64,000 bases of DNA from Tubulanus polymorphus (Eukaryota > Animalia > Nemertea): positions 23,026,560 to 23,090,559 of the forward strand of contig NC_134027.1 in NCBI RefSeq assembly GCF_964204645.1. Direction: 5' to 3'. Made by a program: the position numbers and the translations under genes. The first letter of the stretch is position 1, and each line of letters starts with the position of its first letter. This document shows positions 2,377-28,012 of the stretch, piece after piece. The notes beneath the pieces are model-generated. The model saw nothing but the letters and a program-made list of their open reading frames with translations. It was not told the DNA's origin and made no database searches.

Positions 2377-5300
2377 ATGCATGGAAAGGTAAGGACGAGA
2401 GCTACCACGTATTTCATCCAAATTCATTTTTGTAGATTAAATCTATGCAGTTCCATTGATTAACTAAACCTTGTGACTGATAAGTGCGTGGTAAATCATT
2501 ATCTAACGAGATCCAAACGAAAACCGATTTCGAAGCCGATATCACACGTGACAAATTAGTAATGCACACATTAATTTTCGGTCCCGGTTTGACAGTGTTA
2601 TTTATCGAAACAGTCCAAAGGGTTTGATTTACAAATTCACATCTAGCGCAGACAGCCACCCCTGATATTCTAACATCGAGCAGATTGTGAAATCATGCTG
2701 CTTCAGTACATTATCTTCATTACAGAAGTGTTTGGCAGGGATTGTGGTATCATTTCTAATGTGGACAGGAATAAACGGTAATATACAGTACAGATTTCTA
2801 CTTGCAAAGCCGACCACAAGTGACATGATTAATTCATTTTGCATTGTGAATGTAACAAAAATTATTAGAAGACATGCAGTCATCGGCTTTTCATGAGATT
2901 TGACATCAGGATAAAAGTTCTTTGGTCCATTAGTAAGAATGCCCTAATCCGCGTACGCTGTAGATGATTGAAGAAATCCCGCAATTCGAATTTGTATGAA
3001 AAATTTATTTCTTTATCGTATAAAATAAATGGGATTTCTTCAATTAATTCCTTAATCCACATAATGACAAAATATTTAATGCGCCATAGGCAATCCTGTC
3101 CTTTTTCAAAGCAAATTTGACTATGAGAAGTTTTGTACATCCTCTACCCGACCACCATTACGATTTCCACAAATTTCCACTCGGACTCACTTCAGCATAT
3201 CAAGGCCTGACAACTAATAGATTGACGCAGTTTATACTCAACACAAATGACCTTTACACGTTTCGTAATTCAAATATATATTCTTGCAACGATTACTCGG
3301 ACGCAATTTTATAAACGTTTTTCCTGATAAAAGTATACCAAGGGAATGCACTGTTAATGATATCTTGAGGAAATACAATCTGTGAGCAACGTTGCTAGAA
3401 TGTTTTGACATCATATGATTGATTTCATGCGAAATATGTAATGAATAAATCATGTTTCTAAAATCACGTTGATCCAGTTGATAATCAGCCTTGCGTAAGT
3501 AAACATCTGACTAATTACACGTTTTTGTCACGAATTAATAATTCTTTCTGGATAGTTTCTCAACAACCTCCTCTGCATTTATAGAATTTATAGGCTTCGT
3601 ATAGTGACTTCAACTCGAGTTATTATGGACCAGTTGATATCTGTCTAAAGTCGACTATAAACAAACTTTCATTTCCTTCCATTGAAAATTTCAGGTCAGC
3701 AACAGAACTGTATCGACGGAGCGGATACGACACTCACGACAGTTGCAACACCAGCAGTTGTAATACTAGGTGGCACCACTGTCGTACAATGTCAGGTTTC
3801 ACCACCCGGTAAACATTTCTGCGGTCTCAGAATAACAATGTCTGGCCAATCGGGACATTTTGCATTTGACGAGATTAACTGTCCTAGGGGAACTATCACT
3901 GGGTACACTGGACAATGTGACGTCACAGCTGGACGCTATGGTATACGTATCACTAATGTACGGATGATTGATTCTGGAATGTGGAAGTGTGATTACATGA
4001 ACTCTTTTCCGAATAGTAACACAATGATTACTGTAATAGGTAAGAATGATAAAAAGGTCAATAATATCTCATTTCTCTTATCGTGTTCAGTGATGAAGAG
4101 TGACTGTGAAATTGCATTCACCATTTGATCTAGGTTTGAACAATTCACTGACTGCGAGTGTGACGAGTAATAACGTTAAAGCTTTATTAATTAAATTAAC
4201 GTGAGTAAAACGTGTAACATTTTACACGTACTCTAATCATTTGTAGCATGTTGATCTATAAGAGTAAAATCTCGCAATAAATGAATTGATTGCTAACTTG
4301 TTTAATATTTGAAATATTAGAAATATTTCGGGTGGTTGCTACCACCCTTCTTCAGTCTAAAATGACTGCCCAAATAAATACACAATATATGTAAACATCC
4401 TACTGATGATAAATTTATTATGAAATTGACCAGCCGATTACCCAGCTTATCGACTTATCCTTACGCCCCCCCCTAAGATTCGTAAAAGTAATGTCCCTTT
4501 ACGCATCTTATCATCTCAAGAAGGGGCTCTCCCTCATCTCTCTGGATCCTCGATTGAAAAAAACGCTTTCTCCTTTGTTGGTTCGTTCTCTGGTTCTCAT
4601 ATCAAACAAGATATGGATTTACTACAAGACGTCACGTTACCCTTAATGGCAACAAGTTCATTTCGCTTGATGCAGTCTCTCTGTTCACAGCATCTCTCTG
4701 GAACTCACTTCAGATTTTATCAAACGTTAACTCCCGTCCTGTAATTTGAAGTTTCCTGCCTCAGTTAACTGTCTCGTTGATCTTTTAGAACTAGCGCTAG
4801 AAGAGCCTATTTTCAATTTGATGGCATTTTCTTTGCGCAATATGATTTCGCTACGGGACTCTATCGCCTATTCTAGCTAACCTTTTCTTAGAACACATTG
4901 AATCTGAAATTTTACCCTTTATTCGCGCCTCTTCTATGGCGCAGTTATGTCGATTATATTTTGTGTTTAGTGTCAACTGATCTCATCCTTGACATCTTTT
5001 GACATTTCTTAATTCCCTTTATTTATCCTTCCTAGAAGTTTACCTTCGAGTGGGAGTTCGATGAAAAAAAACACTTTTTTGGATGTTCTCATACAAAATC
5101 TTAATTCGAGATTAGGTTTCTCTGTTTTTCGTAAACTTACTAGCTGTGAATCCTACCTGAATTTCTTTAACTTAACTTAAAGCGGTGGTTGTTCAGGGTC
5201 TTTCCCTTGGGCCTTGGATTTGTGATAAAAACTTTTTAGGCCATGAGATTTTACATAGTAGGGGAGCTCAAATGTGGGTTTCAATTCCATTTTAGCGTAC

Positions 5301-8300
5301 AAAAGTTTTGATGGAAAATTTCAATATTTCCAAATAAATGATTGGGTAAAAGTGCTTTCTTGCATTTTTGGTTTGGGCATTAAGGGGCTATGGCCGCTCA
5401 AAAATGCCCAAGAATCATGGTCAATTTCACTTTATTTGTGTACAACGCTGAAATTTTAGTAACATAATCAACCTTTTTTTTTAAAAAAACTTGCATACCC
5501 GGACAAAGTTTTAAAAGTATCTTCCTCTGTTCTGTTCTCACTGTCCTGATTGTAACCTTTTTATATTGGGGAAACTGGGAAGAATCAAGGAACATAAACG
5601 AGATGCTTTTAAGAGGGTGAAATTAGAAAGTGTGGGGTAGTCCACCATTTTTTGCAAATCGGAGATACTTTTGAATTTCCTGGAGCCAATATTGCTTTTC
5701 CAAACAGCAATCTCACTATAGACAACACATAGTAAGAATCCGCTTTTGATTTGTACTCATTCTGACCGCTCTGTCAACCTCAATAAAGGTTTTAGCCCCC
5801 ATTACATCTGTTTTTCAAAATATGTCAGTACTCCTGTCCCCATTACTTAATGTGCAGTAATTCGTATCTTATTTCATGCATAGACCATGTATTTATGTAC
5901 ATGCGCTGCATTTAATTTTGCAAGTCATTTTAGACTCAAGGAGAGTAATATTTCTTACATTCGAAGTAAACTTTTTAGCTATCAATTCATTTATTGTGGG
6001 ATTATACTCTCATCGTTTTATCACGGATATTTTGTGATCTACAACTGATTCATGTTGATTTATTAATTTTGAAGTGGATGATTTCTTTTAAATTGCCAAA
6101 ATCTATAATATATAATGTAGCAGACGCATTGAAAATGAACCATCGAAGACCCCGTGGTTTTCAATATAGTTTCATATTTACAGTGCCCCCGAGTGGACCA
6201 GTTCTAACATCTCAACCAAACACCGCCGACAAAAACATCGTCGCAGTACAGGAGAATTCACAATTAACAATCACATGTGACGGTTCACAGCCTGGAGCTA
6301 CAGGACTGACGTATAAATGGAGTGGTGTCAATCTATCAGGACAGTCTAATAATAAACTCAGTTTTACACGAATCAGTAAAACTGATTCAGGTGTTTATAC
6401 ATGTAACGCATCGAATATAGCAGGAACAGTTGCTGGTAATATTACTATCAAAGTTCTATGTAAGTATAACGTTAAGATAGATGAACACACGTGATTTACC
6501 TAGTATTCATATTAGGCAATTTGTAACAGAAATTTGTTGGAAATAACCCAGTCAATGGATTCAAAGGAGTTCGTTTTTCAAATCTGTGTTTCATCGATTT
6601 CGATAAAGGAACGAAATATTTATAGGGACCTACTTATATCTGCGTTGAATGCTGGGGAAAACGCGCGCTACTTCTTTACGGAGTTTATTATGAAGTGCAT
6701 TTATGAGGCTGAATTATTTTAAAGTTTCAGATTCTATCCTTATCAAATGACATTTTGTTACATCGGGATAAAGCAATTATCTAGAATAATGAAGTAGGCA
6801 AGAAAATATCGTCAGATTACCACAAAATATTAATCTAAGCGCGTTAATCCTTTAAACGCGGACTCTTCTGAGGCATATTTTACCCTATTCAATCGGGTGT
6901 GTTCTAGACCCCTTATGTCCCATTAATTAAAGCAGATATACATATTTCATTCAAATGAATCTTCCCATCGATCGATATTCACGATATTTCCTCTGAAGTA
7001 TATTCGTCACGATTGTAATCGGGTGAGTTGCGGCTTTGAAAAATATGCGGCAGTTTACCAGCGAACCGTAACGATTAAAACATCAATAACGTACGAGAAA
7101 TTTATTCATGCGAATGCATTGTTGGACTTGACTCGATACTTCATATTTCATATCTATTTGAATGAGAGAAATAACTCAAAAAAGCTTCATGCAAAGGCTT
7201 ATGTTTGTAATAAATATGATTTTTAATGCATTTCAAATGAATTTGGGCCGGTAATCTGAAATATGAAATTGTACAGAATAATCTGTTGCTGTTGTACATA
7301 TAACTCATCGATAAAGATAATCGCTTTTTAACACTTTTAATTTCAGACCCGCCAAGTAGTGTTACATTACAAGGACCGACGTCACCCGTTCAGGAATCCG
7401 TATCTGTTAACGTAAAGTGTACAGCTACAGGGGGTAACCCAGTACCGAACCTCGCCATAACTAGAACACCAGGGGGCAGCACGATAAAACAGGGAATAAG
7501 CCCTCTAACATATTCAACATCCGTCATTAAAACAGATAACCAGGCAGAATATCAATGTAGAGCTACTGGCGCTGGTATATCAACACCAATGATTTCTAAT
7601 AAAGTTCAATTAAATGTCACCTGTAAGTACTGCATTTAGTTTACAAATTACTTGTTATTCCCATGAAGTAATTGCGGTTCTATTTTTGATATAATTCTGT
7701 TTCGTCAACACACCCGGATTTTGACAATATCGAGAACAAATGATTTCTAGTTCAAGCAACAACGCTGAAAATGGTGAAGAAACCAGCAGATTATGTATTA
7801 GTAAACAATAATCAACAGATAGAGTGTAGAACTGACTCGTCAAACCCGGCTGTACAGATTCAGTGGTTCACAAATTCCTCTACAACATGGACAGTACTTG
7901 CCTCTCAATCAGCTACGAGTCAAACTAGTGCAGCCTATCACGGGTTTATGGCTACTAGCAAATTATCTATTACTGCGACTAAAACCATGAATCAGGCTCG
8001 ATACAAATGTCAAACTGGAAATCTTTACAAGGATACAAAGATTACCGTTTACTGTAAGTTTAAAATACATTAGTTCTAAAATATATCATTTCAGATCATT
8101 CGAAAATATTTCGCACCGGATTAATAACCAAATGAAACCTGTTTCTAAACTACACGTAGAGGTTCATTAATGACAGTGAATTGAGAATTTATATGAAATT
8201 CGTTCTATTTTGAATTCGTCCATTTCAGACCCGCCAAGCAGTGTTGCATTACAAGGACCGACGTCACCAGTTCGGGATTCTACTTCCGTTGACTTCACGT

Positions 8301-11300
8301 GTACAGCTACAGGGGGTAACCCGGTACCAAACCTCACCATTACTAGAACACCAGGGGGCAGCACTGTGAAACAGGGAGTTAGTCCTCTAACATATTCAAC
8401 ATCCGTCAATAAAACAGATAACCAGGCAGAATATCAATGTACAGCTACTGGGGCTGGTATACCAACACCAATGATTTCTAATAAAGTCATATTAACGGTC
8501 AACTGTAAGTACCCGGATTGTTTTAACTTCAAATTATTGGTTAATCTCATGCAGTCAATTCAAATACACCTTGGTTGCAAACAATGTCCTCGGGAATTTG
8601 TATTTACTTGCGACAATCCAAAATTTAGTTCTAGCAACAACACTGACAATGGTGAAGAAACCGGCAGATTATGTATTAGTAAACAATAATCAACAGATAG
8701 AGTGTAAAACTGACTCGTCAAACCCGGCTGTACAGATTCAGTGGTTCACAAATTCCTCTACAACATGGGCAGTACTTGTTTCTCAACCAGCTACGAGTCA
8801 AACTAGTGCAGCCAATCACGGGTTTGTGGCTACTAGTACATTATCTATCACTGCAACTAAAACCATGAATCAGGCTCGATACCGATGTCAAACTGGAAAT
8901 CTTTACAAAGATACAACGATAACCGTTCACTGTAAGAGAAAATCACATGTTCGCATCTTTGAATGACCATCTAATAAAGTATCAATCATGACTTTCAATG
9001 TTATATCTTCAGTTCCACCAGAGTCAATAACACTGACTGAAATCCCAAACGGTCCAGTTGTTGAAGGTACATCAAAAACTTTGACGTGTACAACTAAATC
9101 AAGTAACCCGCTGTCTACAATTTTCTGGGCGTACAGCTCTGGGACGACAATATGGACTGATATTTCACCCAGTCCAGCAGTAAATCATAAACCCGGATCT
9201 CAAAGTGCACGGGCATCTACTAGTAGTCTAGCAGTACCAACTGATAAGGATAAAAATGGTAGACAATATAGATGTACAGCTTATCAAAACAGTCAACCTG
9301 TCAATGGTGTCAACACATCCATGACGTTGTCTATATTGTGTGAGTGTTGAATAGGCGATTTATCTTCTTGATAAATGAAAATGCACAATAAATAGATGTA
9401 TTCGTAGCTGTTCGGTAGAGGTCTTGGATTACTGAGGCAATGAAATGAAAAATTATCTTTTAATTTTGTAAAACATAGTAGTTAGTGTATATCAATTAGT
9501 GTATCAATCAAATCCACGAATGATTAATTCGTCACAGAAAACTTGTAAAAAACTGATATGATTTCATATGAGGGAATTTTACTCCATTTATCAGTTACTT
9601 TTTATAGCCGATGTCCGCTGTAAAAAAAACCAGTATGACTATAGTGAACTGATATTTATCTCAGCGTAGAATTAACAAATAAAAACCCTACGAAAGCGTC
9701 GTTGTGTTCTTACAAGTGAACTTTACTCCATGTATTAGTGATATTTTATCACCGATGTCCGATGTAAACAACCAGTATATACACAGTACAACGACAGCGT
9801 CCGGGGGACATAATTACTTTGCATCGAAGGAAAACATTCTAAAACAATTCATCTATCTTTATTCTAAGTTCTATTCCGAATTTCATCCGTATTTTGTTTT
9901 AATTCTACTCCGTTACTCAACGGGATCAAATTCCTGATAGCATTAGTGCAACTGGTACATATCCTCATTTGAGACTACACTGTACATTCTTTCATATTTC
10001 AAGTGCTGGAAAAATTACTCTTGTATTTTCTAGAAACTTTTTATTCTATATACACTGGATACAATATTACATATTTAGTTCAATTCTACAATAGATGCAC
10101 CGCAGCTTTCTTCACAAGTTGAACCCGTTGCCGCAAATATAGGAGAAAGTGTTAGATTTACGATAAACTACGATGCGAATCCGCAAGCGACAACTCTCAA
10201 CTGTAGACACAATTCAACAAATGACCGACGGAAAATGAAAAATACTAGTTTAACGCAGTGGAATGTCATCATACAATCAGTTCAGGCGGCTGATTTTGGA
10301 TCTTATTCGTGTAGACTCAATAACTCAGTTGGTAGCATAGATTTAACACTGAAACTCACTGAGACTGGTAAGAATCATGTGCTATTTCGAATTATATGTT
10401 TTTTTTAGAAATTCGCAGTCATTTGCACTATAGCACTATTTACCACTTATCAATACTAATAAAACCTGCAAATATCGATTGCAGCCTGAAACCTATTTTC
10501 AATGATAACTCTTCTGTTAGTCGTTCATCAATTGATAATATTTGAGTTGTCGGATGTCTGGAGGGATGCTGGGCCCAGGGTTCAGAGTAATACCGGAGTA
10601 ACACTCTGAATAACACGAGACTGCATTTTGCTGAACTGGGATCCCAATAAATTAGTGCAGCGCGCGAACTATAAAACGAATTTCTTTTTTTTTCTTATTG
10701 TTTCAGGACCTCCCAAAACACCGTCAAATCTGTCAGTTATTGCAAAAACAGCCATTTCTGTGACGCTGAGTTGGGTGTCTGAATTTGAGGGTGGTACCAA
10801 ACAAACGTTCGCTGTCAGTTACAGGGCTTGGAATTCCATACAATTCGTGAATAAAGCTGAAATACCCGATCCCGGTTATAGAAAACTGGTGCAAACGAAA
10901 ATAACCGGTTTAAAACCGGCAACTGATTACCAGTTCAAAGTGAAAAGTGTCAACTTAAATCCTGGTGATAATACAAGTCCATTTACTGATATAGTTACAA
11001 CTAATACAAATGGTAAGATTGAAGGCTTGTTAGATATGTAGGTTTTATAAGATATAAATACAGGCCTATTTTTAAGTCCGTTGGAATAATTAAACGTAAA
11101 TTCCTCATTTCTTTAAGTTTCTGATTAGGATAATTTTGTTTGAGTTGAATTCCTCATTCTCGGAAAATCCTCATTGCGTGTCATCGAAGAAATTCAAACA
11201 AAAAGCTGCTTCGGATTATTTTACCAGTAAACTTTGCCGATGTCATTCACATTCGACGTCGCATCATTTCCGGTCAAATTCAGAATCAAGGAGCTTCCCG

Positions 11301-14300
11301 TTGATACGAATATAGGAATCGGAATACGTAGCGACATACGTGCCTCCTCGATCCCCGATCTTGAGAATTCGGCTGTTAGTTCCAGCTAGTGGGATTGGCT
11401 GCAGGTGCTTCATTCTGGATGATTGTGTTGATGATATAATTTTTTCTGCTCTTTTTTTTAAATCGAATTCATGGTTTCTAATTTTCTAGCTATTCCAAGC
11501 GCTATAACCACCGTATTGAAGCAAGCGACAGTAACACAGCAAGGAAATAGTGTCCTGATAAAAATGTCGTCGTTTCCGTCGAAGTACAGCGTCTACGTGA
11601 AATACTGTATCAAACATACAAACGAATGTTTTAATTCTACGAAACAAGAAAGTACTGGCGGTTCGATTAGTATTGAGATTAAAATCGATCCCGATCAAGC
11701 ATACAGTTACCAACTGATTGTAACTGAGAGTAGTGACGTGATTCTGAGCCATCAGGTTGAAATTCCAGGTAAATATTTGCTGGTTAGTGTCGGTAAACCA
11801 AGATCCAAACGTTGAAAAGAGAAAGATAAACAAACAAATAAATGCATAGATATCCCAACCACGCCTATAGTCATTTTGCTAGTTCGCTTTTAATGAAAAA
11901 TATCTCTGGTGAAATCCAGGCCCATCGATACTTCCTTGTCATAATTTGCACATTTTATTTTCCCATTTTTCGATCCTCTCAGTTACTACCAATGTTGCGT
12001 TGATCGGAGGTGTTGTTGCTGGTGTATTGTTGGTCGCCATCATCGTTATTGTGTTCGTGTTTCTATTCGTGAAAGGTCGTCGAGACGGTCAATGGATCTG
12101 GACAAAATACTGCACGAAAAGGTTTATGTTTCTTTTTGTTTATACGTTACTAGAAGTTTCCTCTTCTATTCGCTAAGCTTAATCGAATGTCAATAGATTA
12201 ATTTCCATGCTGAGCAATAGACTCTTATTTTGTCTTTAAGGTATGTCCTACCCGTTTGTGTCCTATTCCCTTTTTAGATGGGCCAAAGAAAAAAGCAATG
12301 CCGTCCTTTGATTTGTACGAGCCATAAAAAACGATAGTCCTTTTTTCAACAATAAGTGTCATTAATTCCACCAATGACTTCATTAATTTTGACGATAAGG
12401 ACATATTTCGTGATGTAAAAGTGGGCAATTTTCGGTGATATATTTCAAAAATCAGAATATTATAAATGGTCTCGAAACTGGTTGTACACGTTAGTTACAC
12501 CACGAGAAGATTCGAATCCCAATATTCCATTTAACCGATCCCTTTCACTAGCGACAATTATATTTTCAAAATGTGTAATCGACGTGTAAATAATGCAGCG
12601 AAATCATTCTTTCATTTCAGAAAAACTGGAGAATCACAAGTTGGTAAATGAAGTAGAAATAGATTTGTTATTCGATGGGAAATATAATATAATGATAATA
12701 TTATCAGTAATTTCATCATTATTTGAATTACAGGCCTTCTAGGGTTTCATCGGTTTTCCATACACTGAATATTTTTAAAACGAATACGTAACATCAATTC
12801 TATGATATTTTTGATAATAGCGTCATTCTTGAACAGAATTGTTCTTATAATTTCAGTTTATTCGAACACGAAGGAATCCCCGTGTATGTATATTCGATGC
12901 ATTTTCTGCCTTCGTGTCTCACTGTGAATTGAGTTTACTATCGAAAAATATGATATTTCAGACTCTTACGCCACGGTAACACCGAACGTAAATGCGGCTT
13001 TTGAAGGTGGTAAGTCAATTATCATTAAATCACTTTTTCAATTTAACTTATTATACGTACATTTCTATGAAAACATCTATGAGAAAGTTTACAAAATTTT
13101 AGTCTCACCAGTGGCAAGATGTCGTCGACATCTGTACCAACTATTTTTGTTCCAAATCCTCACAGCCGCTATTCCAAAGTGCCACCTTATCATTTTAGGG
13201 ATACGAATCATTTTTCTTATCTCATAGAATTTCAGGGCTTTTAAAGATTTTATCAGTTTTTACGAAACCCCACAAGGTGAAAACTCATTTTTCCGTGGCC
13301 ACTGAGTAGAGACAATAGCTTGATGTAAGTGCTTAATGACCTCACCATCTTCTAACCAGTCTCACTGCTTCTATTCTACCCCCTCCTGAACGGCGCTAGC
13401 TATCCTTTACATGTCCCTATATTCTATTATAGCAACTAAATGCTCTTCTATCTTTCCAACAAACTCCCACCTTGTAATCTGAGCCATTTGCCATCAGTGT
13501 GCACACTGCACACTCTACTCATATATACATTTAACTATTGAATCTACACCAAAAAATAATCTTCCGTTCGAACGGAAAGGTTTGTGGCCTCGAAAAAAAT
13601 ATGTATTTCTCAGCATGTTACCATAGGTTTTCTATTTACTTACACTGAATATTATATTTTTTCAATCTTGGAATAATTTTCATCATTTCAGTCTATTCAA
13701 CCAGTAATCAAGCCCATGGCACAGATCTGTGTATGTTTATTCGTTGCATTTGATACTTTCTCATTTCACTGCGAATTTAGTTTACAATTTATGGAATATG
13801 ACATTTCAGACTCTTACGCCGCGGCCACAAGGAGCGTAAACAAGGCTTTTAACGGTAGGTCAATTATCATTGAATTAAGTCACACATTTCTATGAGAAAA
13901 TCTAGAAAATCTAGGAGACAATATAGAAAAATTCTAACGAAGGGCTAGCTATCGTAGACATTTTGTTTCAATCATCCTTGACCTAGCCTCCGCGCCTGCC
14001 TTGTCATTTTCGGGAAAGTGAGCATTTCATTAATCCGCTTGCATTCTTAGTTTTCCTTCGTTAAAATCTGGCTTCTGAAGATATTTTACTGTTTTCTAAA
14101 AACACTGAATATGTGATATTAGGAAATTCATACATATCATCTATGTTTTTCTGGATATAATTGATTTTATATTTATTCCTTGAACCGAATTTCCACCATT
14201 GCAGTTTAATCAAACAGTAATGAAGCATATGACAAAGACTCGCGTATGGATTATATTCGTTTCATCTGAAACCGTCTTATCTCCCTGTGAAATGCGTTTA

Positions 14301-14661
14301 CTATTGATAAAATCATATTTCAGACTCTTACGCTGAGGAATCACTGTATGTAAATGTAGCTTTTGGCGGTATGCAAGTCATCATTAAATCACTTCATCGA
14401 TTATCATTAACCCATACCATAAAATTCATCGATAGACATCATTCTAAGCAAACAATTTAGAATCTTCACAAAAGACTTAGATATCGTCGGGTTTTTCAAC
14501 TACTCGTCACCTAAGCTCCGCGGCCGCTTTATCATTTTTTTTGGGATAGTGATAACTATGTGTTTTGTTTGTTTCCTTCATTAGAAGCAGACTCTGTAAC
14601 TGGTGACCAGAACCATTATGAAGAAGTTATTATGGAACTTTTTACTGACTCGAAAAACTAG
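2377..14661 (+). CDS. Gene A: multi-exon Ig-superfamily type I membrane receptor (SP, V, 7 Ig, FN3, FN3-like, TM, Tyr-motif tail; nephrin/sidestep-like)
   Basis: Hand-built GT-AG exons: 2377-2388 (MHGK, least certain), 2726-2777 (signal-like KCLAGIVVSFLMWTGIN), 3695-4039 (V-like), 6184-6459 (Ig a), 7347-7622 (Ig b), 7751-8053 (Ig c), 8229-8504 (b), 8629-8931 (c), 9013-9339 (d), 10095-10367 (e), 10707-11012 (FN3), 11490-11768 (FN3-like), 11983-12121 (TM), tail 12621-12643, 12857-12883, 12962-13009, 13692-13730, 13810-13854, [14205-14243 contains TAA], 14324-14368, 14591-14661 (..NHYEEVIMELFTDSKN*). Ig motifs C...W...DSGxYxC or YxC. Domain exons are all phase 1-1. AATAAA follows near 14685. Confidence 0.85.
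3695..4039 (+). CDS. Gene A exon: N-terminal V-like Ig domain with extra cysteines
   Basis: ttcag acceptor and gtaag donor; VQC...IRITNVRMIDSGMWKC; 6 Cys; homologous to 49033-49383 (-). Confidence 0.85.
4258..6020 (+). mobile_element. Degenerate Penelope-like element (RT + GIY-YIG relic) in the gene A intron after the V exon, with inverted terminal segments
   Basis: Frameshifted fragments match the intact PLE protein in this window (SFSGSHIK, FISLDAVSLFT, PILANLFLEHIE, YIGETG, VNLNKGFSPH). 4258-4395 is an inverted partial copy of about 5900-6020. Confidence 0.85.
4317..4360 (-). ncRNA. Minimal hammerhead ribozyme motif (PLE-type)
   Basis: Minus strand TTAGA-CTGAAGA-A-GGGTGG-tagcaa-CCACCC-GAAA-TATT-TCTAA: CUGANGA and GAAA core, 6-bp stem II, 5-bp stem I, palindromic stem III. 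Confidence 0.75.
10707..11012 (+). CDS. Gene A exon: fibronectin type III domain
   Basis: GPPKTPSNL..SVTLSW...Y...ITGLKPATDYQFKVKSVN FN3 signature, bounded by AG/GT. Confidence 0.9.
11983..12121 (+). CDS. Gene A exon: transmembrane segment
   Basis: VALIGGVVAGVLLVAIIVIVFVFLFV followed by KGRR; 139 nt, the same length as the C/D TM exon. Confidence 0.9.
12857..14368 (+). repeat. Three tandem copies of a two-micro-exon cytoplasmic module in gene A
   Basis: Pairs VYS.. / (Y/H)SYA....N.AF at 12857/12962, 13692/13810 and 14205/14324, with homologous flanking introns. Confidence 0.75.
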
Positions 14662-17600
14662 CACGATGTGCTTGTAACATCGAAAATAAATTATACGACC
14701 CTTCTACTCCGTGGATGGATTCAAAGTTATTTGCAGCGTCATATGTACTTTGAAATGATTCCTGAAGAAACAATGTTACGATTTCGTTTTGTTTTCGCTT
14801 TCTCGTCGAACAAACACAAAATATACGTAAATTGATAAACAAGTTGAACGGGTGCAATTAGAAATAGGTCTAGTTGTTGATGCCGTTAGACTATGCAACA
14901 AGTTCGAATTCCTACGAGTGACGGTCTATTCTGAAAAATCTGTCGAAAGTAACTGTAATTTCTGCTTGTTTCCTCATTCACACTTATTCATTACCTACGT
15001 AAATTACCATTTCATTGTAACGGAATATAATGAATTATTTGATAAATGTGAATGTATTGTTAGAATAAGAAATAAAAACAGATCTTGCTGTGAGTGGTAT
15101 ATTTCCCCAGACCTTTCGAAAGCGTTCGACATTCCAAATCATGACATTATATGTCATGATTTGGAATATCATTATATGAAGGTTTCCTAGGGATAGTAAA
15201 CGATTGGTATTCTTCTCATCTTCCCAATCAACAACAAAATACGTCTCACACAAATGCTCCATTTCTTCCACACTATCCGCTAAGATCTGAGTATGCCGTG
15301 GTTTCTATCCTAGGTCCACTTCTTTTTCTTATTCACATGCATTATATTTATTCTTCTACGGAAAAGCTTAAGTACATACTATTCGCTGTTGATACGCCAC
15401 TGCATTAGTTCACATATACATCTCTGTACAAACATACATACATAATGATTTAGATTTGACGATGATGACTGCAGTCTCTAAAATAAAAAAAAAGCGCCTA
15501 CAAATATCTTATCGTGCACGAAGTCATAGTGAAATATTTTTGAAACCCCCATTTCAGCCATCCATCATACTTTATACTTTTTGTTATCATTGGATCATTT
15601 ATGTTAATCATATGATCATTTATGTTTACATTGGGCTTCACCTTACTTGATCTAATGCCGATCAGTTTCTGTATGAGATTTTTTAACAAAATATAATAAG
15701 AATTTATTCAAACTACAACGTAAGTCTCATTTTATGCAATTTCTGAAGAATCTCTATCTCGAGTCATTTGTGGGTTCATTGACAATTCACAATGGCTTAG
15801 GTTATCTCAGGTGGTACAACACCGTGTGAAGTACGAAAGGCAGATTTCCAGGGCAAACTTCGGCTTTCGTAGCTAGTGGTTGGAAGAAATAACCGAACGC
15901 ACTATGTTTGGTCGTAAGGCATTTCGCTGCGTCGTCCATCTTGGAAATAGACACGAACTACAGCGACCGTGCCCAATCTCGTGGTCGACCGTTTTCGGTT
16001 CATAGTTCGGACAAACTGACATTCGGTTTCACTTAGTTCGACTATAGTCAAATAACTCCCATAACGAAGTTCGCCCAGTGTGCTGATAAAAATATCTAAT
16101 GCCTTGCATCATTCACAACCAATGATGTCTTGGGTGTCGAAGTTCTGATTACAACGAAAAATGGCGATTAAGTGTCGAATGATGGTTCGATTAAAGATAT
16201 TTTAGGTCAAGTTCCGCAGTTCACGAAATGGCCGAATGGTGGCAGCAGATGTAGAAATGAATACATGTCGTTCAAACATTAATTTTTGAATGTCTCAGGT
16301 ATGAATTGAAACTCGCTCTGTCTATAGCTGTAAAAACCGAGCACCTCAGTTTCATATTCTACTTCCTGGTTGGAATTTCTACGAACACATATTGAGATAT
16401 TCACGCAAAAAAGTGTGAAAACAGTGTTATAAGTAGTTTCTTGTAAGCGATCTCTTTTCTTCTAGAAAGTAAATTCGGCCACTGTATTTATTCTCGCCTC
16501 TGCGTCCTATCTGTTGAAAGGCCTTTTAAGTCTTAGGGATGCTTATCGAACATGTAATTCGTTATAATTTTGAGTACTAAGTACAGAAGAAACAGTCATT
16601 TCCTACTTATACGACGAGCGTTGAGCCGCCTAAACAGAACGAAATATAAGCCGCGGACTCAGGTTTACACGTATACGCTCAACCTTCTTCAATGTCATGC
16701 GACTATTCCCCCTCTTGTTTGCTATGATCATGTTCATATTCTTGTTAAATAGGAGCAATACTTCCTCGTCTCTATTGCGTCGCATATTACTGGAGATCGG
16801 GATTTGGCAGTAGCAACGAAAGAAGAAAACATTCCACTCGCTCATCTGACTCGTGACTGGAAAAACGTTGATGAATGATTCCAAGGTTTTTGTTTGGAAA
16901 TTAATCCGATTTTTGAACACATTTTTATCGAATTTGGGGAATTCTTTAGTTTTCTTCATTTAAGATCTACCAATCAATGTAACATTACAAGGACCGACGT
17001 CACCCGTACAGGAATCCACATCTTTTGACTTAACGTGTACAGCTACAGGGGGCAACCCGGTACCGAACCTCGCCATAACTAGAATACCAGGGGGCAGCAC
17101 TGTGAAACAGGGAGTTAGTCCTCTAACATATTCAACATCCGTCACTAAAACAGATAACCATGCAGAATATCAATGTACAGCTACTGGGGCTGGTATACCA
17201 ACACCAATGATTTCTAATCAAGTTAAATTATTTGTTTACTGTAAGTACTACACATATTTCTCAATCTACTCCATTTCTAAATGAATGTTGCACAATAAAG
17301 AATATCAGGGTTGATAAAGATGCCGTACATGCAATGTTCCCAATCATTTTTTCCATTTTCCACAGATGCACCAAAGCTCTCGGAAAAACTCAAACCCGTC
17401 GTAGATTTACGATAAACTACGACGCGAATCCGCGAGCAACAACTTTGAATTGCAGCCACACGTTTGAATACAGGGCTACTCCGGCAACCATGTTCTGGAT
17501 CGTAACTGTAAAATCAGTTCAGGCGTCTGATTACGGATCTCATTTGTGTCAACTGAAGCGTAGAAATTACATTGAATATCCTAGAAATTGGTAAGTGCTG

Positions 17601-18757
17601 CATCGTGCGGAACTTTATTCCAGAAACGAAGCTTCATTACGGTTGCTGCAGTCCACATGTGGAAAAATCCCTAGAAATTCTAATGAAAACTGCTTTAGAT
17701 TCTATAGTCTCATTATTGTTCATTTGTCATCAATTGCAAAATACAACTTTTGCAACCTTCATCTTGGTCATTTTGTTCATTGTAGGGCTTCGAAATCTGA
17801 CAATCGTCGCAAAAACGGCCGTATCTGTGACTCTGAGTTGGATATCGGAATTTGCGGGTGGCTCCATAAAAACATTCACAGTCACTCACAAGGCATTGGA
17901 ATCTACAAAGTCCGCGGATAAAACTGGAATACCCGATCCTGGTTATGGGAAAATGGTGCAAACGAATTAATAACCGGATTGAAACCAGCAACTGCTTATC
18001 AGTTCAAAGTGATAAGTGTCAACTTAAATCCTGGTGATAAAACGAGGCCATTTACTGATATAGTTACAACTCGAACAAATGGTAAGTGTGAATCATGTAG
18101 AGATTTCGAATAGAACCATACAGGTCTCTTCCCCTATATTCACTGCGCATTGATTCATGGTCCATTCCTCCTTTCGGTGTAATGAACTAAATACCGGTTT
18201 CTTGAATACTGTTGCGTATATTTCTCATCACTAAACTTCGAGAATGTTTCATACGTTTCTACTATCGGTTCTTGTTTTATAAGTTTTCCCGACAGGCGTC
18301 ACCTCTACGCATGCGTATAACCCAACGGTCAACTTAGCCAAATTCATCGGCTTAGATGTATATAGATCCCTCCAATAGTATATATAGTATTGTAAATAGT
18401 TGATGTATATATATATTTTGTTACGTTTTCATTCTCTAAATTTTAATCACTTCAGTGTTGTTTTGTAAATATTTGTATATAAATGTGTAATAGTTTTCCT
18501 CCATATACCATGGAAATGGTTGGAGTGTAAATAAATCGTAATCGTGATATTGTATCGTGTATGAGTTACACGTTCCGTTCAGCCTTTCAAAGTCTGAATC
18601 GACAGAACTTTAGGGTAGATATCAGATCCTAAAACCGACTTGTTGCGCGTGCGCAGTGACTGGCATTGACTTCGAAAACTTGTAAAATAGAAGTTCGTGA
18701 CCACGGTATATTCGTGACCACGGGACTTCTGATAACAGCACTACTGGTTGAATTATC

Positions 18758-19178
18758 ATAACAAGAGAAATCCCACAATAAGTTCAGCCAAAACGAGAAA
18801 CTTGAATAGAAGAGTTATATATATTTGCGCAACGTTTCGGCTAAAGACTATTAGCCATCATCAGGCGTACTGAGTACAGGAGAATATTACAAGATATTTA
18901 TACAAGACCAAAACAATAGAAGCAGAGTGAGTGATTAAAATATTGAAAGGGGAATAGATTAAAGTAATGACATAACAACTAGAAAACAATGCTAAAGTAA
19001 GCAAGGCAAACTAGGGGCAATGTAGATTAAAGTAATTAATAAACAAAGACACAAGCTAAAGTGATTAAAACGGGAGGACAAGCTAAGGGGTAATCAAATA
19101 AAACAAAGAGAAGGAACATGAAAGGCGATAATCAGTGAGTGAGTGGAAACAAGCAAACTATGATAAAGGCAAAACAAT
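18758..19178 (-). repeat. PLE pseudo-LTR (3' copy), 421 bp
   Basis: Appears identical by eye to 21615-22035. Confidence 0.92.
18826..18869 (-). ncRNA. Minimal hammerhead ribozyme in PLE pLTR
   Basis: CGC-CTGATGA-T-GGCTAA-tagtct-TTAGCC-GAAACGTT-GCG on the minus strand. Confidence 0.8.
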
Positions 19179-19186
19179 GGAGGGAA

Positions 19187-21577
19187 TTAGTATAACGGGG
19201 GTACAAGAGAAGCGAGAAATTTGGAGATCAAAATGTTGTGGGGGGAAAAACCGTTATTCAAATTAACACAATTTTCCAAGTTTTCAATAATCAGGGCCGA
19301 TTCCATAATGTGTCGTTTAATCTTTTCTGAACAGGGGAAAATCATGGAGGCATTTTCAAAATCAAAATTGTGGCTGGTTTCGTATACGTGATTAGCAACA
19401 CCGCTTTCAGGCTTAAAATTCTTTACATCATTCTTATGTTCACGAATGCGCTTGTGTAAATCGCGTCCGGTTTCGCCGATATATATTTTGTTACAAACTT
19501 TACAGGGAATTTTATATACACCAATGTTCAGGGGTTCAATTTTGGGGGAGTTATGAGTAAGATTACGACTAAGTTTGTTGTTATAAGTAAAAATGAGTTG
19601 TTTGTTTAAGAGATGGAGGGGAGTTTTAGATTTTTCCAGAAAAGGAACAAAAGGTACAATAATAGGCTGTTTACGCGCGCGGGTCCCTTGAGAGTGACTG
19701 AAATGTGAACGACGGGCTCTCAAGAGAGCTTTATTCAAAATGTCGTCGGGGTAAGCTAATTTATTAAGAGAGGTCTTGATCTGGGTTAGTTCATCATCCA
19801 AGAAAAGGGGGTCACAAATCCTTAATGCGCGAAGGAATAAGCTTTGGGCAACACTAAGTTTAATGTTATGAGCGGTGAAGGAGAAATAATGTAGGTATGT
19901 TCCAGAGTGGGTAGGTTTCCTATAAACCGAGAATTTTAGACAAGACAAACAATTGTGTATACAAACATCAAGGAAAGGGATTTTCCCATCAACTTCCAAT
20001 TCAAATGTGAAGTTCAAGGAGGGATAAAAAGAGTTAATAAATGTGAGAAATTGATCAATATCAAAGTCAAAAGGTATAAGGGCAAGAATATCATCAACGT
20101 ATCGTAACCAAAGTTTAGGGAGAGTATCTGTGTAAAGAGGTAGTAATTCGGTTTCAACGTGTTCCAGGAAAAGATTTGCTAGAATGGGACTAAGCGGGTT
20201 CCCCATAGCCATGCCAAAAACCTGTTCGAAATATGAATTGTTGAAACTAAAAAAGGAGTTCTGGGTGCAAAGTTCAATTAATTCGATAATACAATCAGTA
20301 GGAATGTCAAAATTGAAATCCAACGAAGGAAGTTTCCGTTTAAGAAAATCAAGGGTAGGCCTAAGAGGAACATTGGTAAAAAGAGAACTAGCATCAAACG
20401 AAATGAATCTATCGTTACCAGGAATAATGTTTTTTAACCGTTCTAATAAATCTTGGTTGTGTCGTAAATGCGAGGCGGAGAAAGAACCAAGAGCCGGTGA
20501 TAATTGTTTAGCCAGAAATTTGGATAAACGATAAGAGGGCGAATTACAATTGGATACAATGGGGCGCAGCGGAACATCTTTCTTATGGATTTTGGGGAGC
20601 CCATAGATATAAGGTAGGGAGGGTAGACGTGATTGAAATTTCGAAAGAATATCTTTAGAGTCCGGAAACCGTTGGATAATACCAGACAGATTCTTATTGA
20701 ATGAAGCTTGCATACGTGAGAGAGGGTTGGATTTCAATGGTTTATAAACATTAGAGTCACCAAGAAGGGAGAACATTTTTTGATTATAATCACAGATATC
20801 TAAGAGAACAATTTTGCCACCTTTATCAGCTTTTGAAATACGAACAGAGTCTAGTTTTCTGAGTTCAGAGAGGGCAATCCTGAAACGACGAGGTAAAAAT
20901 TCTGAGTAATTATAACGGAGGTTATCACAAATAGTTTGTAAGTTCATAAACATAAAATTGTATTCAAAATTCGAGGAAGATGTCTTACGCTGTTCTAATT
21001 CCGACATAAAATCCAGGATGTTCGTCTTGCGGTGAGGTAAAGAAAAGTTCAAACCGAAGCCAAGGAGTTGAAGTTGATACAACGTGAGCGAAACGGAGGA
21101 GAGATTCACAATAATGTCCGTGTTGCTAAACTTAGTCCAAGGACTAAGAATAATGAGCTGTTGAAGTTTCGAATTAAGTTTACAAGAATTGTCAGAAAAA
21201 TGACGGTTACCGGAGTCCATAACGATAGAGCTGAGTAAGTTGAAGAGATGCGGGTCCGGAAGTTGAGATCTGAGGTAATTGTGCGCTTGCCGAGATCTGA
21301 AGAATTGATAATCGCAATCATCTTTAGCTTTGCCGATCGCTGATCTTAGATGAGAATTTGCTTGCTTCGGAAATGGTGAATGCGAATCGAATTTCTTGAT
21401 CCAGTTCATGGAGCGAGGAATCACCTTTTCGCTGAGGCAGTCTTGCAGAAATTTCACTTTGGTTTTTGCTGTTTTCGCTTGGATGTACCGCTTTTCATAA
21501 GTCCGAAAGCAAGAGATGAGATGTGGAAAGGTTATAAAGAAGAATTGAAGAACGATTTTTCGATCCGTGGGAAGCAT
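19187..21577 (-). CDS. Penelope-like element ORF: reverse transcriptase + GIY-YIG endonuclease (796 aa, intact; Penelope/Poseidon-like)
   Basis: KADKGG, YGLPKIHK..PLRPIVS, SFDASSLFTNVP, GMAMGNPLSP, WLRYVDD, SVYRKPT, GVYKIPC..C...YIGETGR....RI.EH, H....H, E..LI...NLNNG. Confidence 0.97.
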   Translation of the reverse strand: MLPTDRKIVLQFFFITFPHLISCFRTYEKRYIQAKTAKTKVKFLQDCLSEKVIPRSMNWIKKFDSHSPFPKQANSHLRSAIGKAKDDCDYQFFRSRQAHNYLRSQLPDPHLFNLLSSIVMDSGNRHFSDNSCKLNSKLQQLIILSPWTKFSNTDIIVNLSSVSLTLYQLQLLGFGLNFSLPHRKTNILDFMSELEQRKTSSSNFEYNFMFMNLQTICDNLRYNYSEFLPRRFRIALSELRKLDSVRISKADKGGKIVLLDICDYNQKMFSLLGDSNVYKPLKSNPLSRMQASFNKNLSGIIQRFPDSKDILSKFQSRLPSLPYIYGLPKIHKKDVPLRPIVSNCNSPSYRLSKFLAKQLSPALGSFSASHLRHNQDLLERLKNIIPGNDRFISFDASSLFTNVPLRPTLDFLKRKLPSLDFNFDIPTDCIIELIELCTQNSFFSFNNSYFEQVFGMAMGNPLSPILANLFLEHVETELLPLYTDTLPKLWLRYVDDILALIPFDFDIDQFLTFINSFYPSLNFTFELEVDGKIPFLDVCIHNCLSCLKFSVYRKPTHSGTYLHYFSFTAHNIKLSVAQSLFLRALRICDPLFLDDELTQIKTSLNKLAYPDDILNKALLRARRSHFSHSQGTRARKQPIIVPFVPFLEKSKTPLHLLNKQLIFTYNNKLSRNLTHNSPKIEPLNIGVYKIPCKVCNKIYIGETGRDLHKRIREHKNDVKNFKPESGVANHVYETSHNFDFENASMIFPCSEKIKRHIMESALIIENLENCVNLNNGFSPHNILISKFLASLVPPLY

Positions 21578-21614
21578 GATGAGACGAGAAGATACACAAT
21601 ATCCGTGTAAGAAG

Positions 21615-22035
21615 ATAACAAGAGAAATCCCACAATAAGTTCAGCCAAAACGAGAAACTTGAATAGAAGAGTTATATATATTTGCGCAACGTTTCGGCTA
21701 AAGACTATTAGCCATCATCAGGCGTACTGAGTACAGGAGAATATTACAAGATATTTATACAAGACCAAAACAATAGAAGCAGAGTGAGTGATTAAAATAT
21801 TGAAAGGGGAATAGATTAAAGTAATGACATAACAACTAGAAAACAATGCTAAAGTAAGCAAGGCAAACTAGGGGCAATGTAGATTAAAGTAATTAATAAA
21901 CAAAGACACAAGCTAAAGTGATTAAAACGGGAGGACAAGCTAAGGGGTAATCAAATAAAACAAAGAGAAGGAACATGAAAGGCGATAATCAGTGAGTGAG
22001 TGGAAACAAGCAAACTATGATAAAGGCAAAACAAT
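21615..22035 (-). repeat. PLE pseudo-LTR (5' copy), 421 bp
   Basis: Direct repeat of 18758-19178, immediately upstream of the ORF. Confidence 0.92.
21683..21726 (-). ncRNA. Minimal hammerhead ribozyme in PLE pLTR (second copy)
   Basis: Identical to 18826-18869. Confidence 0.8.
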
Positions 22036-22490
22036 ATTATTTATATTTTCGTGGTGTCCTGTGTGGGAGAACGCACTTGGCACGCAGCAAAGTTCGGGTA
22101 AAAACCTCAACTTGGTTGTAAAAATTGTTTAAACTGCGCGTAGGTGCTGTAGATTAGGTATTTTTACTGTTGCTCTACGTAATTTGGTGAAAGGTGATTT
22201 CTCCTTATCCTAAGATCGAAGATCGTATCAACAGGTTTCGCGACAAGAACATTCCCTGGGTCTAGTTAGGCAGTTTCGTAAGTCCTTCCTTTGATCCAGT
22301 TCATCTTCATTTCATATCATTTTCATCCCATCACGACACATTTCCACAACTAAACACCCAGTCTTAGGTCAGAGAGATCAGAGTTGCACGTCCTGAGGAG
22401 CTAACTGAGTCCTCCCAGGGCATACTTTGACGGTCACACAATAGAGGCTTGCTCTCTTTTAAATAGGTTTAGGTTAGGTTTAGGACTAAA
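22036..22490 (+). mobile_element. Decayed 3' fragment of a second LINE
   Basis: Broken frames read CPVWENA (resembling the Y-x-x-P-V-W motif after the LINE RT) and YPKIEDRINRF, followed by UTR-like sequence. Confidence 0.45.
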
Positions 22491-22977
22491 ACCACACATA
22501 TCATTCCATATATTACACACATTATTATTCATATTACTATCCGTATATACTGCAAGTTATCGTCGTAACAGTATACAGTATACGTTAGAGAATTAGTTCG
22601 GAATACAAATAGTCTTTCGTCTAGATTACGTGCGTTGCGGAAATTCGAGTACGCACACACGTATACATTATCCATACGTATTTCGTCGATTCAAAATTCG
22701 TCACGCTCCGTTACATTTTCTTTTGTTCGTAGCCATAGTTACAACAAAGCGCACTGGTCTTGACTCGTCACGCTCTATTGCGTTACTATTATCTACTTTC
22801 TATCGAGCTGACACGACACCGAGATTCGTTCTAATCCGGCAAGCTCTGCCAAATTCGTCATCGGTTACTCTGAAAAGATTGAAACCGTACAACCTGTAGT
22901 TCTATATAAACACGAACATATATTTACATTTATATATACCCGTTAAATTATTTACCCTTTTCAATCTGCGTTTGAAT

Positions 22978-24504
22978 ATGTCTGTTTTACGATCACCTCC
23001 AGCCGGACGTGATCCGGAACCATCGACCTCGTCGCCGGTGGTCCTTGAAAAATCCAGCAAGCGAATATCTCCTAGTGAACATTTCGTTGAATTCGTTCGA
23101 GAAAAACTCTCTAGAACACCTACAAAAAGACAAGATGCATTAGCGTCTCCGATTCTAAGAGAACCATCCACTACATACGCCGAGGTCGTTGCAGTAACCC
23201 CGGCAGTGAACACAAACATAGAAAATACAATCGTACCAGTAAAAGTTAACGCAGAACCGACTTCGAAAAAACGGCCAGCGTGCGAGTCACCGTCGGACGA
23301 CGGACAGAGACGAAGTAAGGTTCGGTCGACGGATGACGGTATTTGTCGCCCGATTATTGTAACCAGAGTAGCTAAATATATGAGCGAACCAGTATTCATC
23401 AGAACCTTAGTCAAAGAAATTCCAAACGTTAAAATCAAGTCTATCAAACGTCTCATGTCCGGCGATTACCGAGTTAATCCGGAAACGTACCGCGATATGA
23501 AACTGATCCTAAATTCTCAAAATACCACTTTCGAAAAATATGATATATCTTTTTACAAGCTCGAAAAACAAATAGATTACATCGTCGTTATTAACAATGT
23601 CGCTGAGTACAGCGAAAGAGACATAGATATCGCTCTTAAAGACCACCAAATCACTCCAAAATACACGACAAAAATGAAATCGGCAGCAACGAACAGAACA
23701 ACAGATAAGATTAAAGTCGCTCTATCAGAAAAAACAGACTACGATTTTCTGTTAAGCAATGGACTCGAGATTTTCGCCGGTGTGAGGAAGAAATGCGTAG
23801 CTTATAGACGCAGCCCAACACTACTCCAATGTAGGAAATGCCAGATGTTTGGGCATAATCAATATAACTGCACAGAAGACAAAGCAATTTGCGCGAAGTG
23901 CGCCCACTTTCACCAAACCTATGAGTGTAAAATAAAAGAAAATTACGTTTGTTCGAACTGCGGTGGAGAACACCGCAGTTTCGACAAAGCCTGCACATTT
24001 GTGCAGGAAGAAATTAAAAAGAAACAACGAGAGAGATCTAGGTCGAGGTCGAGGTCGAAATCCAACTCTAGACCGATTGAAACAAAAGAGCGTAGGAAAC
24101 CGATACCAACACCACGAAAGAAAAAAACAGTATCTGAGAAAAAACAATCTGTATCCGAAAAACCCTTTTCATCGGAACAAAATAAAAACCAAAGACCTAT
24201 ACCGAAACGTAGAAGTTCACTAGATAAACCGAAAGAAAGCCCTCCACCGAATAATATCATTATACTAAACGAAACATCATTTCTATCGCTAATTGCAGAC
24301 ATAATTTACAGAGTACGTATGAACAAAGAAAATAGCCTATCCGACATCTGTGCGAGGATAAGCGAAAGCACATTAGATCATACTAACTTAAAAATCAGCG
24401 GTAAAGATATATACGAACATACAGTCGGGAAAAACTCACACCGGCTGAGTAAGATAAAAATAACGAGACCGTTATCTGCTAGCGACACAAATCTAGCTAA
24501 ATAA
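22978..24504 (+). CDS. LINE ORF1, gag-like nucleic-acid-binding protein
   Basis: CRKCQMFGHNQYNC, CAKCAHFHQTYEC and CSNCGGEHRSFDKAC triple knuckle, followed by a basic RS-rich region; first ATG at 22978. Confidence 0.93.
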   Translation: MSVLRSPPAGRDPEPSTSSPVVLEKSSKRISPSEHFVEFVREKLSRTPTKRQDALASPILREPSTTYAEVVAVTPAVNTNIENTIVPVKVNAEPTSKKRPACESPSDDGQRRSKVRSTDDGICRPIIVTRVAKYMSEPVFIRTLVKEIPNVKIKSIKRLMSGDYRVNPETYRDMKLILNSQNTTFEKYDISFYKLEKQIDYIVVINNVAEYSERDIDIALKDHQITPKYTTKMKSAATNRTTDKIKVALSEKTDYDFLLSNGLEIFAGVRKKCVAYRRSPTLLQCRKCQMFGHNQYNCTEDKAICAKCAHFHQTYECKIKENYVCSNCGGEHRSFDKACTFVQEEIKKKQRERSRSRSRSKSNSRPIETKERRKPIPTPRKKKTVSEKKQSVSEKPFSSEQNKNQRPIPKRRSSLDKPKESPPPNNIIILNETSFLSLIADIIYRVRMNKENSLSDICARISESTLDHTNLKISGKDIYEHTVGKNSHRLSKIKITRPLSASDTNLAK

Positions 24505-24575
24505 AATCGTAAGCGATGTACTGATTTTAATCTAACACATTAACTTTCTTTTAGACAATTATCTAACTTTTCCTC

Positions 24576-27329: not shown

Positions 27330-27678
27330 CTCTATAGCGTGTACTCTACTACGAACCGACACCCGCGTAGTCGGAGAATTGAATGGAAGATTTCTTTGTG
27401 TTACAAGAACTATATAGGTAGCCCGTATCTAGGTCGCTACTCCTTACACAACACGTCACGTGAACCGAACTATATGCAGTAGAACTATATACTCTTATTA
27501 ACATTTCTAAGAAATTATAAGTTTTGTATATAGTAATTGACAAAGTATTCTAACTATATCGCGACTCCCCTTAACGGAGGAAAATCACTATTTTTGTGTA
27601 TCATATTATATACATATATATCTACCATATATTATATCATAGACTCTTGTGATATATACGTATTATATTAATCACTAT

Positions 27679-27714
<36 letters not shown>

Positions 27715-28012
27715 TATAACTAATCACTAACAAACTCCTGATAAGGACCGAACCAAACAAAAACGCCTAAATAATAAAAACTGTCCGTTCCGTATGTACC
27801 TTTGTTTGAATCCTTCACACTCACACAAATATCACACCACCCACATCCCCCTTAGTTCATCTCATAATAGTTCAACTCATATACCTATCATCACATCAAG
27901 CAAATAATCATGCACCTACGCGTCCTGAATGTAGGAGAGTGGCCACCACTCTCGAGCATTAAAAACGCGCTCTGCGCGTTTGTCTTTTTTTTTATCTGCT
28001 GCCTGTACTCAG

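Follow-up and report, generated by a model that had tools for sequence, protein, structure and literature searches.

The gene A locus

The DNA analysed here, called the window, was a stretch of 64,000 nucleotides (64 kb) from contig NC_134027.1 (positions 23,026,560 to 23,090,559, forward strand) of the Tubulanus polymorphus genome assembly GCF_964204645.1. It contained four members of a ribbon-worm receptor family with immunoglobulin (Ig) and FN3 domains: genes A and B on the forward strand, followed by gene C and the 3' part of gene D on the reverse strand (Table 1). The family comprised two classes, S with a short and L with a long cytoplasmic tail, and the S and L genes of the window were on opposite strands. 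Gene A combined an L-type transmembrane (TM) exon with an S-type tail. A preliminary description had proposed that it was a tail-swap chimera, in which the ectodomain and TM exon of a C/D-type gene had been joined to the tail of gene B. Gene A was found to be a real recombinant; its likely mechanism was corrected from a tail swap to gene conversion, and its function is predicted from tail motifs. DNA-level comparisons covered the window together with aligned reads and contigs, paralogs beyond the window were compared as RefSeq proteins, and exon relatedness was scored as z against 300 shuffles.

The product of gene A consisted of a two-exon leader, eight Ig exons, an FN3 domain, a further domain called X, the TM segment and a tail encoded by micro-exons (t1 to t8). 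Pfam matches were found for six of the eight Ig exons, including the I-set exon, with the V-set match falling under the curated cut-off. The X domain was predicted to be a seven-stranded sandwich (AlphaFold predicted local distance difference test score 91), and its Foldseek matches to FN3 domains were all weak (E > 0.001, best E 3.5e-3). The FN3 exon as a query returned 18 proteins among 82 candidates, all from T. polymorphus. The two at 100% identity, P0001 and P0002 (XP_074645302-305), are the RefSeq models of gene A, which is annotated with four transcripts encoding two protein isoforms. The TM exon was open, as were six tail exons and each of the ten ectodomain exons.

The tail contained three copies of a YSN/YAxx exon pair, and the YVNV motif had been lost in t3 and t5. 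The preliminary list of micro-exons had missed the in-frame stop in t6. Since this stop precedes YEEV, a tail made from all eight exons has 61 residues and lacks YEEV; the RefSeq tail keeps YSN and YEEV and has no YVNV-type motif. Substitutions were seen in t7 at 14336 (sample X5 and part of X2) and 14341 (X1, X2 and X5), some of which may come from other S paralogs. An apparent skip of 13825-14347 in X1 and X5 was rejected as a deletion, as the inserted letters fit the exon of another S paralog aligned in two pieces.

The switch between transmembrane and tail exons

The mosaic of an L-type TM exon and an S-type tail was supported on both sides of the intron that joins them. The TM exon of gene A was 85.6% identical to that of gene C (z 23.3), and had no clear relation to that of gene B (z 2.1, with 7 of 300 shuffles scoring equally high), although the B exon is also 139 nt long and has the same phases. 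The introns on both sides of the TM exon aligned with C. Identity between A and C was 71-97 per 100 nt over positions 10000-12199 and collapsed beyond, as the preliminary description had noted. In the junction intron the C-like stretch stopped at 12218 (55/76, score 58, shuffle maximum 39), and a B-like part covered 12434-12568 (score 52.5, shuffle maximum 39), its start moving to 12292 under laxer scoring. This places the switch at some point from about 12218 to 12434. A search of this intron for a relic S-type TM exon was negative (score 20, shuffle mean 22).

Downstream of the switch, tail exons t2-t8 matched B tail exons (z 4.4-10.1, with none of 300 shuffles as high), as had been claimed for the whole tail; t1 alone did not (z 0.6). 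The C/D tail had been called unrelated, which held: none of 72 exon pairs between the A and C tails exceeded z 3.1.

Near-identical copies such as C and D are abundant in the region, so the junction might have been an assembly error between paralogs or haplotypes. One DNA contig from X1 bridged it (11989-13498, 3 differences), as did one from X2 (12099-12565, 4 differences), each extending more than 100 letters past the switch in both directions. X1 is possibly the source of the assembly itself, and X2 and X5 are other samples. Raw reads from X5, a third sample from another study, filled all 30 bins over the junction with no joint listed there, at a single-copy-like depth of about 4-6-fold compared with about 21-fold over the TM exon. 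These data largely refute an assembly error, which is extremely improbable. The TM-to-tail splice itself is predicted by the RefSeq model. No aligned RNA contig spanned it in four small RNA runs at 80% likeness, which is uninformative either way: three of the four gave no alignment at 80% (X7 none at 90% either), and X8, which gave spliced family contigs including the X-to-TM joint, had coverage ending at about 12300.

Two receptor classes in Tubulanus polymorphus

The receptor family fell into the two classes S and L. There were 19 distinct models with both a TM segment and a tail, and TM type agreed with tail type in 18 of them (11 S/S and 7 L/L); gene A alone had an L-type TM and an S-type tail. 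P0030 and P0033 came to light once the trees were complete and were assigned to a class by eye and motif alone; P0008, which has no TM segment, was excluded from the TM and tail counts, and identical rows were removed from the trees. The TM tree split S (9) from L plus A (6) with support of 100/100. The tail of gene A matched nine of nine S tails (z 5.5-14.7) and none of seven L tails (z -0.3 to 1.1). Leader type, classed by eye (that of gene A against 11 other protein leaders), equalled tail type in all 12 genes having both, gene A included.

The ectodomains behaved differently. For V, FN3 and X the approximately unbiased (AU) test rejected monophyly of S or of L (p <= 1.3e-4), and for the I-set tree it rejected monophyly of S plus A among the results listed (p <= 1.3e-4). 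In this family the types of leader, TM and tail go with one another, whereas the Ig/FN3 ectodomains are mixed across the classes. Separate comparisons of ectodomain, TM and tail, which the preliminary description had proposed, gave TM and tail histories that were incongruent across the family. A second S/L pair, P0026 (S) and P0013 (L), was found on another chromosome; its members share 93% of V, 98% of I-set, 98% of FN3 and 96% of X, and their TM segments are class-specific despite the shared ectodomain. Within each of the pairs A/P0005 and P0026/P0013, the genes shared a chromosome-length contig.

A query with the gene A TM segment and tail returned, among 267 candidates, only gene A and one new L gene, and a query for shorter L-tail relatives returned two Tubulanus proteins, one of them P0177. 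Neither S- nor L-type tails were seen outside Tubulanus in the 21 proteins inspected of 150 representatives listed. Distant FN3-X-TM relatives with varied tyrosine-rich tails were present in Lineus longissimus (P0038, P0040, P0053, P0062 and P0066) and Lingula anatina (P0036 and P0074). The Lineus relatives share one chromosome-length contig, which makes a similar cluster possible in that species. RefSeq P0019-P0024, beyond the window, are isoforms of one model with different L tails, one of which differs from the C tail by 1/237 residues; possible readings are that exons of tandem copies were joined in these models or that the copies exchange tails. No paper on the Tubulanus receptor family was found in the literature covered, which left out most subscription journals.

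Origin of gene A

Both the leader exons of gene A and the flank of its first exon were S-type. Gene A therefore reads S-L-S. This order needs two switches and is more in keeping with gene conversion of an S locus than with one crossover. The preliminary description had the ectodomain C/D-type throughout. The closest ectodomain was instead that of an L gene located beyond the window, P0005, with per-domain identities of 87% (V), 91%, 87%, 90% and 92%, compared with 68-91% to C. The near-identical sensors that had been described for A and C/D (V only 68% identical between A and C) are thus found between A and P0005. The X domain of gene A grouped with those of P0005 and C (support 100/99), and its TM segment was 81-83% identical to those of P0005 and C and 65% to that of P0013. 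Read depth over the X-TM intron at 90% likeness was several-fold higher, though the C copy is just 72-80% alike, which hints at a close P0005-like copy. The donor of the middle of gene A was likely P0005-like.

The tail was nearer to P0009 (64%) and P0026 (58%) than to B (49%), within a range of 42-64% for S tails overall. B itself is a frameshifted, 5'-truncated relic and was not the donor. A single crossover in the TM-t1 intron had been the earlier proposal: the 5' part of a C/D-type gene, in its entirety, would have been fused to the B tail. The switch does lie within that phase-2 intron and the tail exons match B, so that gene A as a recombinant and the intron concerned were correctly identified. 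The single swap is largely refuted by the S-type leader and first-exon flank and by a leader-V intron that had no homology to C (score 30, shuffle mean 33). The low V identity to C, a tail at least as close to other S genes as it is to B, and the opposite strands of A and C, between which a crossover would be expected to invert rather than fuse, also argue against it; it is very improbable.

The history of gene A was probably one in which L-class gene conversion overwrote the middle of an S-class locus, reaching one exon further than in its relatives. Among S genes, P0009 has an FN3 domain 91% identical to that of an L gene and an X domain only 74% identical, P0026 shares X as well, and gene A shares X and TM. 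Conversion is favoured because crossover between inverted ectodomains would join S leaders to L tails, which was seen in none of 12 genes. Inverted S and L neighbours would repeatedly copy ectodomain exons onto each other without crossover. A tract from the P0005-like donor would have crossed the X and TM exons into the S-class gene A locus and stopped within the next intron, 100-310 nt from its start, at a place where no homology between S and L introns is detectable; the shared phase-2 boundary would have preserved the reading frame. Local triplication of the YSN/YAxx exon pair, before or after conversion, YVNV decay in two copies and the stop in t6 would have remodelled the tail.

Neighbouring genes

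The coordinates of the features in the window are given in Table 1.

Table 1. Receptor genes and features of the 64-kb window
Feature	Position	Strand	Description
Gene A	2377-14661	+	L-type TM exon, S-type tail
Gene A leader exons	2377-2388, 2726-2777	+	S-class signal peptide; match start of RefSeq P0001/P0002
Gene A Ig exons	3695-10367	+	V-like 3695-4039, six more Ig/C2-type, membrane-proximal I-set 10095-10367
Gene A FN3 exon	10707-11012	+	Pfam fn3, E 5e-10
Gene A X exon	11490-11768	+	Predicted degenerate FN3-like beta-sandwich (AlphaFold, weak Foldseek matches)
Gene A TM exon	11983-12121	+	L-class type; 139 nt, phase 1 to 2
Gene A junction intron	12122-12620	+	C-like to 12218, B-like 12434-12568
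Gene A tail micro-exons t1-t5	12621-12643, 12857-12883, 12962-13009, 13692-13730, 13810-13854	+	S-class; in RefSeq model
Gene A micro-exon t6	14205-14243	+	In-frame TAA 14207-14209; skipped by RefSeq isoforms
Gene A micro-exon t7	14324-14368	+	Sole A copy retaining YVNV; skipped by RefSeq isoforms
Gene A last coding exon t8	14585-14661	+	YEEV and stop
Gene B	16965-30048	+	5'-truncated S-class relic; X, TM and tail exons open (28207-30048)
Gene C	51029-33336	-	L class; leader from ATG 51029, TM exon 37075-36937; RefSeq P0007
Relic S-class first exon	51893-51983	+	ATG 51932, stop after four codons
Gene D, 3' part	64000-55969	-	L class

In gene B, frameshifts and stops disrupted the I-set exon (17366-17590, 225 nt compared with 273) and the FN3 exon (17786-18081, 296 nt compared with 306). 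Upstream of it neither a leader nor a V exon was detected in the window, and RefSeq has only a 188-aa 3' model (P0174). Two retroelement-like inserts were seen by eye in its FN3-X intron (18758-22035 and about 22900-27700). One of them, on the minus strand and enclosed by 421-nt repeats that are 100% identical, we take to be Penelope-like; the other resembles a long interspersed nuclear element and has a poly(A) end.

The tail of gene C was long, with EPxY[AS]xV-type motifs and one site matching the consensus of the ITIM (immunoreceptor tyrosine-based inhibitory motif); exact EPxYAxV motifs followed by basic runs were at 35355-35302 and 34129-34025 (-). Open leader, V and I1 exons (51029-46169, -) lie upstream of the start of P0007 in the first I-type exon, so the public model of C is 5'-truncated. 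Recent internal duplications in C involved a two-exon Ig block of about 2 kb (42791-46961) and a 72-nt tail exon (34272-34818). C and D differed at one site in about 4.9 kb (36500-41363 compared with 59136-64000) and by 3-6% further 3'. Their proteins were identical to residue 993 and near-identical to tail exon t2, and from t3 on the D tail equalled the P0005 tail (0/237 differences). D resembles a recombinant of C and P0005 that arose very recently, or else a false duplication.

The relic S-class first exon resembled the exon-1 region of gene A (72/83 identity, score 94.5, shuffle maximum 42.5) and was head-to-head with the start of C, about 0.9 kb apart. Since positions 1861-2488 upstream of gene A also matched 51432-52386, S/L pairs on a shared promoter are suggested. 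An L partner head-to-head with gene A was sought in 1-1860 and not found.

Gene A could itself be a decaying by-product of conversion, real as DNA but with a tail that is losing function or rarely spliced and is not under selection. The stop in t6 and the loss of YVNV from t3 and t5 are in keeping with this, as are its dead S-gene neighbours, B and the relic at 51.9 kb, and the frequent loss of the activating partner described for vertebrate receptor pairs (PMC13358205, PMC12447643). The open ectodomain, TM and tail exons, the four RefSeq transcripts and two isoforms, and the presence of the junction in more than one sample speak against decay, which is considered unlikely.

Tail motifs and predicted signalling

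The two tail classes carried different tyrosine motifs. [ED]PxY[AS]x[VI] was found in six of seven L tails and in none of 12 S-type tails, and YE[ED][VI] in all but one of the 12 S-type tails and in none of the seven L tails. Y[VMI]N[VT] was present in 10 of the 11 S tails other than that of gene A. One match to the ITIM consensus, a short motif, was found in all seven L tails and in no S-type tail (0/12); the skipped t7 would add one to gene A. The 19 tails contained no canonical immunoreceptor tyrosine-based activation motif (ITAM), and none of the 17 TM cores of S and L genes had a charged residue, so the classical adaptor-coupled activating type does not apply.

EPIYA-A/B segments bind Csk, an inhibitor of Src-family kinases, and one review describes EPxYAxV as strongly under-represented in mammalian proteomes and as a means by which bacterial effectors recruit Csk (PMC3593179). 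pYEEX peptides bind the Src SH2 domain, and pYVNV binds the Grb2 SH2 domain (PMC2888578). L tails would thus recruit Csk via EPxYAxV and damp Src-family signalling, and S tails would dock Src and Grb2 via YEEV and YVNV and activate. That L receptors inhibit and S receptors activate is therefore predicted from these motifs, as a tentative assignment somewhat short of an even chance. The RefSeq tail of gene A has no YVNV, so its S output is predicted to be weakened unless t7 is included; gene A would then be a weakened activating partner with the same ligand as a P0005-type inhibitory receptor. No paper covering all five motif terms together was found in a literature search.

Taken as a whole, the conversion origin of gene A combined with the predicted outputs of the two classes was judged the best explanation, with a probability of roughly 0.68. 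Several observations weigh against it. YxN was found in both classes, four times each in the C and D tails and once in the RefSeq tail of gene A, which weakens the motif argument of the preliminary description. An ITAM-like pair with V for L/I was also not class-specific (9 of 12 S-type and 5-6 of 7 L tails). Given these shared motifs, the assignment of on and off functions is not clean. Several RefSeq models may fuse tandem copies, blurring gene counts. In the junction intron, resemblance to B is weak and comes from one S paralog, and the donor DNA, the P0005 locus, is outside the window, P0005 being compared as a protein. The AU test does not reject the gene A TM segment as sister to all L segments (S plus A against L, p 0.276), so this 48-column tree alone cannot show that it is derived.

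The last result is also compatible with gene A being the old state, an S gene that gained a new TM exon, with the L class arising later from an A-like gene whose leader and tail were replaced; the 42-64% identity of its tail to S tails is about that expected for an old split. The higher TM identity to P0005 and C than to P0013, the nesting of the X domain with those two genes and the alignment of both TM-flanking introns with C favour conversion instead, and an old state costs two more replacements, making it quite improbable.

Comparison with other receptor systems

By analogy, the S/L cluster may work like vertebrate paired on/off immune receptors. As described for SIGLEC11/SIGLEC16 (PMC5701461), CD300A/CD300C (PMC12447643), and Siglec-5/14 and PILR (PMC13358205), such receptors have linked genes, ectodomains homogenised by conversion and different TM segments and tails. 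Linked genes with similar ectodomains were found here as well (84-92% per domain for A/P0005 and 93-98% for P0026/P0013), as were different TM and cytoplasmic parts (the 100/100 TM split, and an A tail unrelated to L tails) and homogenisation across classes (class monophyly rejected for V, FN3 and X, with leader and tail coupled in 12/12). SIGLEC11 and SIGLEC16 are described as head-to-head about 9 kb apart (PMC5701461), compared with about 0.9 kb in the window. Unlike vertebrate pairs, neither class had the charged TM residue by which an activating partner couples to DAP12 or FcR-gamma, or a canonical ITAM, both had tyrosine motifs of their own, and the gene A tract included the TM exon.

Two invertebrate systems showed similar features. 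Botryllus fester/FcoR (bioRxiv 10.1101/2024.10.16.618699) is described as forming clusters with head-to-head pairs, recombined ectodomains and intracellular regions, and tyrosine motifs in the tail, as here; in that account TM and tail are analysed as one unit and the pairs come from two related families, whereas one Ig/FN3 ectodomain pool was found in Tubulanus. Hydractinia Alr (bioRxiv 10.1101/2022.03.04.482883) is reported to have a V-set, I-set and FN3-like ectodomain, exon shuffling, tails that diverge more than the ectodomains, and ITAM or ITIM motifs in some tails. In gene A, I-set and FN3 were matched, V-set fell below the cut-off, and X was FN3-like by weak fold matches. The Tubulanus receptors had many more Ig domains, including C2-type repeats, and no canonical ITAM, are not known to act in allorecognition, and are likened to Alr by architecture alone.

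The automatic RefSeq names 'nephrin/SYG-2-like' appear to reflect partial Ig similarity. Nephrin and SYG-2 share with the Tubulanus receptors an Ig chain with C2-set domains and FN3, a single TM segment and a tyrosine-bearing tail, and the best PDB match was SYG-2 (E 4e-18, residues 99-368 only). Unlike them, the Tubulanus family is multi-copy and fast-recombining, includes an additional FN3-like domain and has two classes of tail. Orthology is disfavoured because of the multiple copies and the partial match. The nephrin tail has Nck-binding YDxV motifs, and none were seen by eye in the S and L tails inspected. The S/L family is assigned to none of these systems, since the adaptor/ITAM feature fails and opposite function is predicted only.

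Conclusions

Paired receptors maintained by conversion have been described in vertebrates, and a tunicate and a cnidarian follow a related logic. A single recombinant is ordinary for such clusters, and the surrounding two-class system is the more interesting result. The exact EPxYAxV of L tails is the pattern of Csk-binding bacterial effectors, here in a metazoan transmembrane receptor. As a natural swap that splits the TM/juxtamembrane exon from the tail, gene A makes it possible to test whether partner choice and output are set by the one or the other. At its fullest, and as a doubtful proposal, ribbon worms would have an independent paired-receptor system with head-to-head S/L pairs on a shared short promoter, conversion-synchronised ectodomains and Src-versus-Csk outputs (YEEV/YVNV versus EPxYAxV) that need no ITAM adaptors, in which gene A would be a functional third type with S output under an L-type membrane anchor. 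If true, this spiralian case would indicate that the paired design evolves repeatedly and can work with other signalling components.

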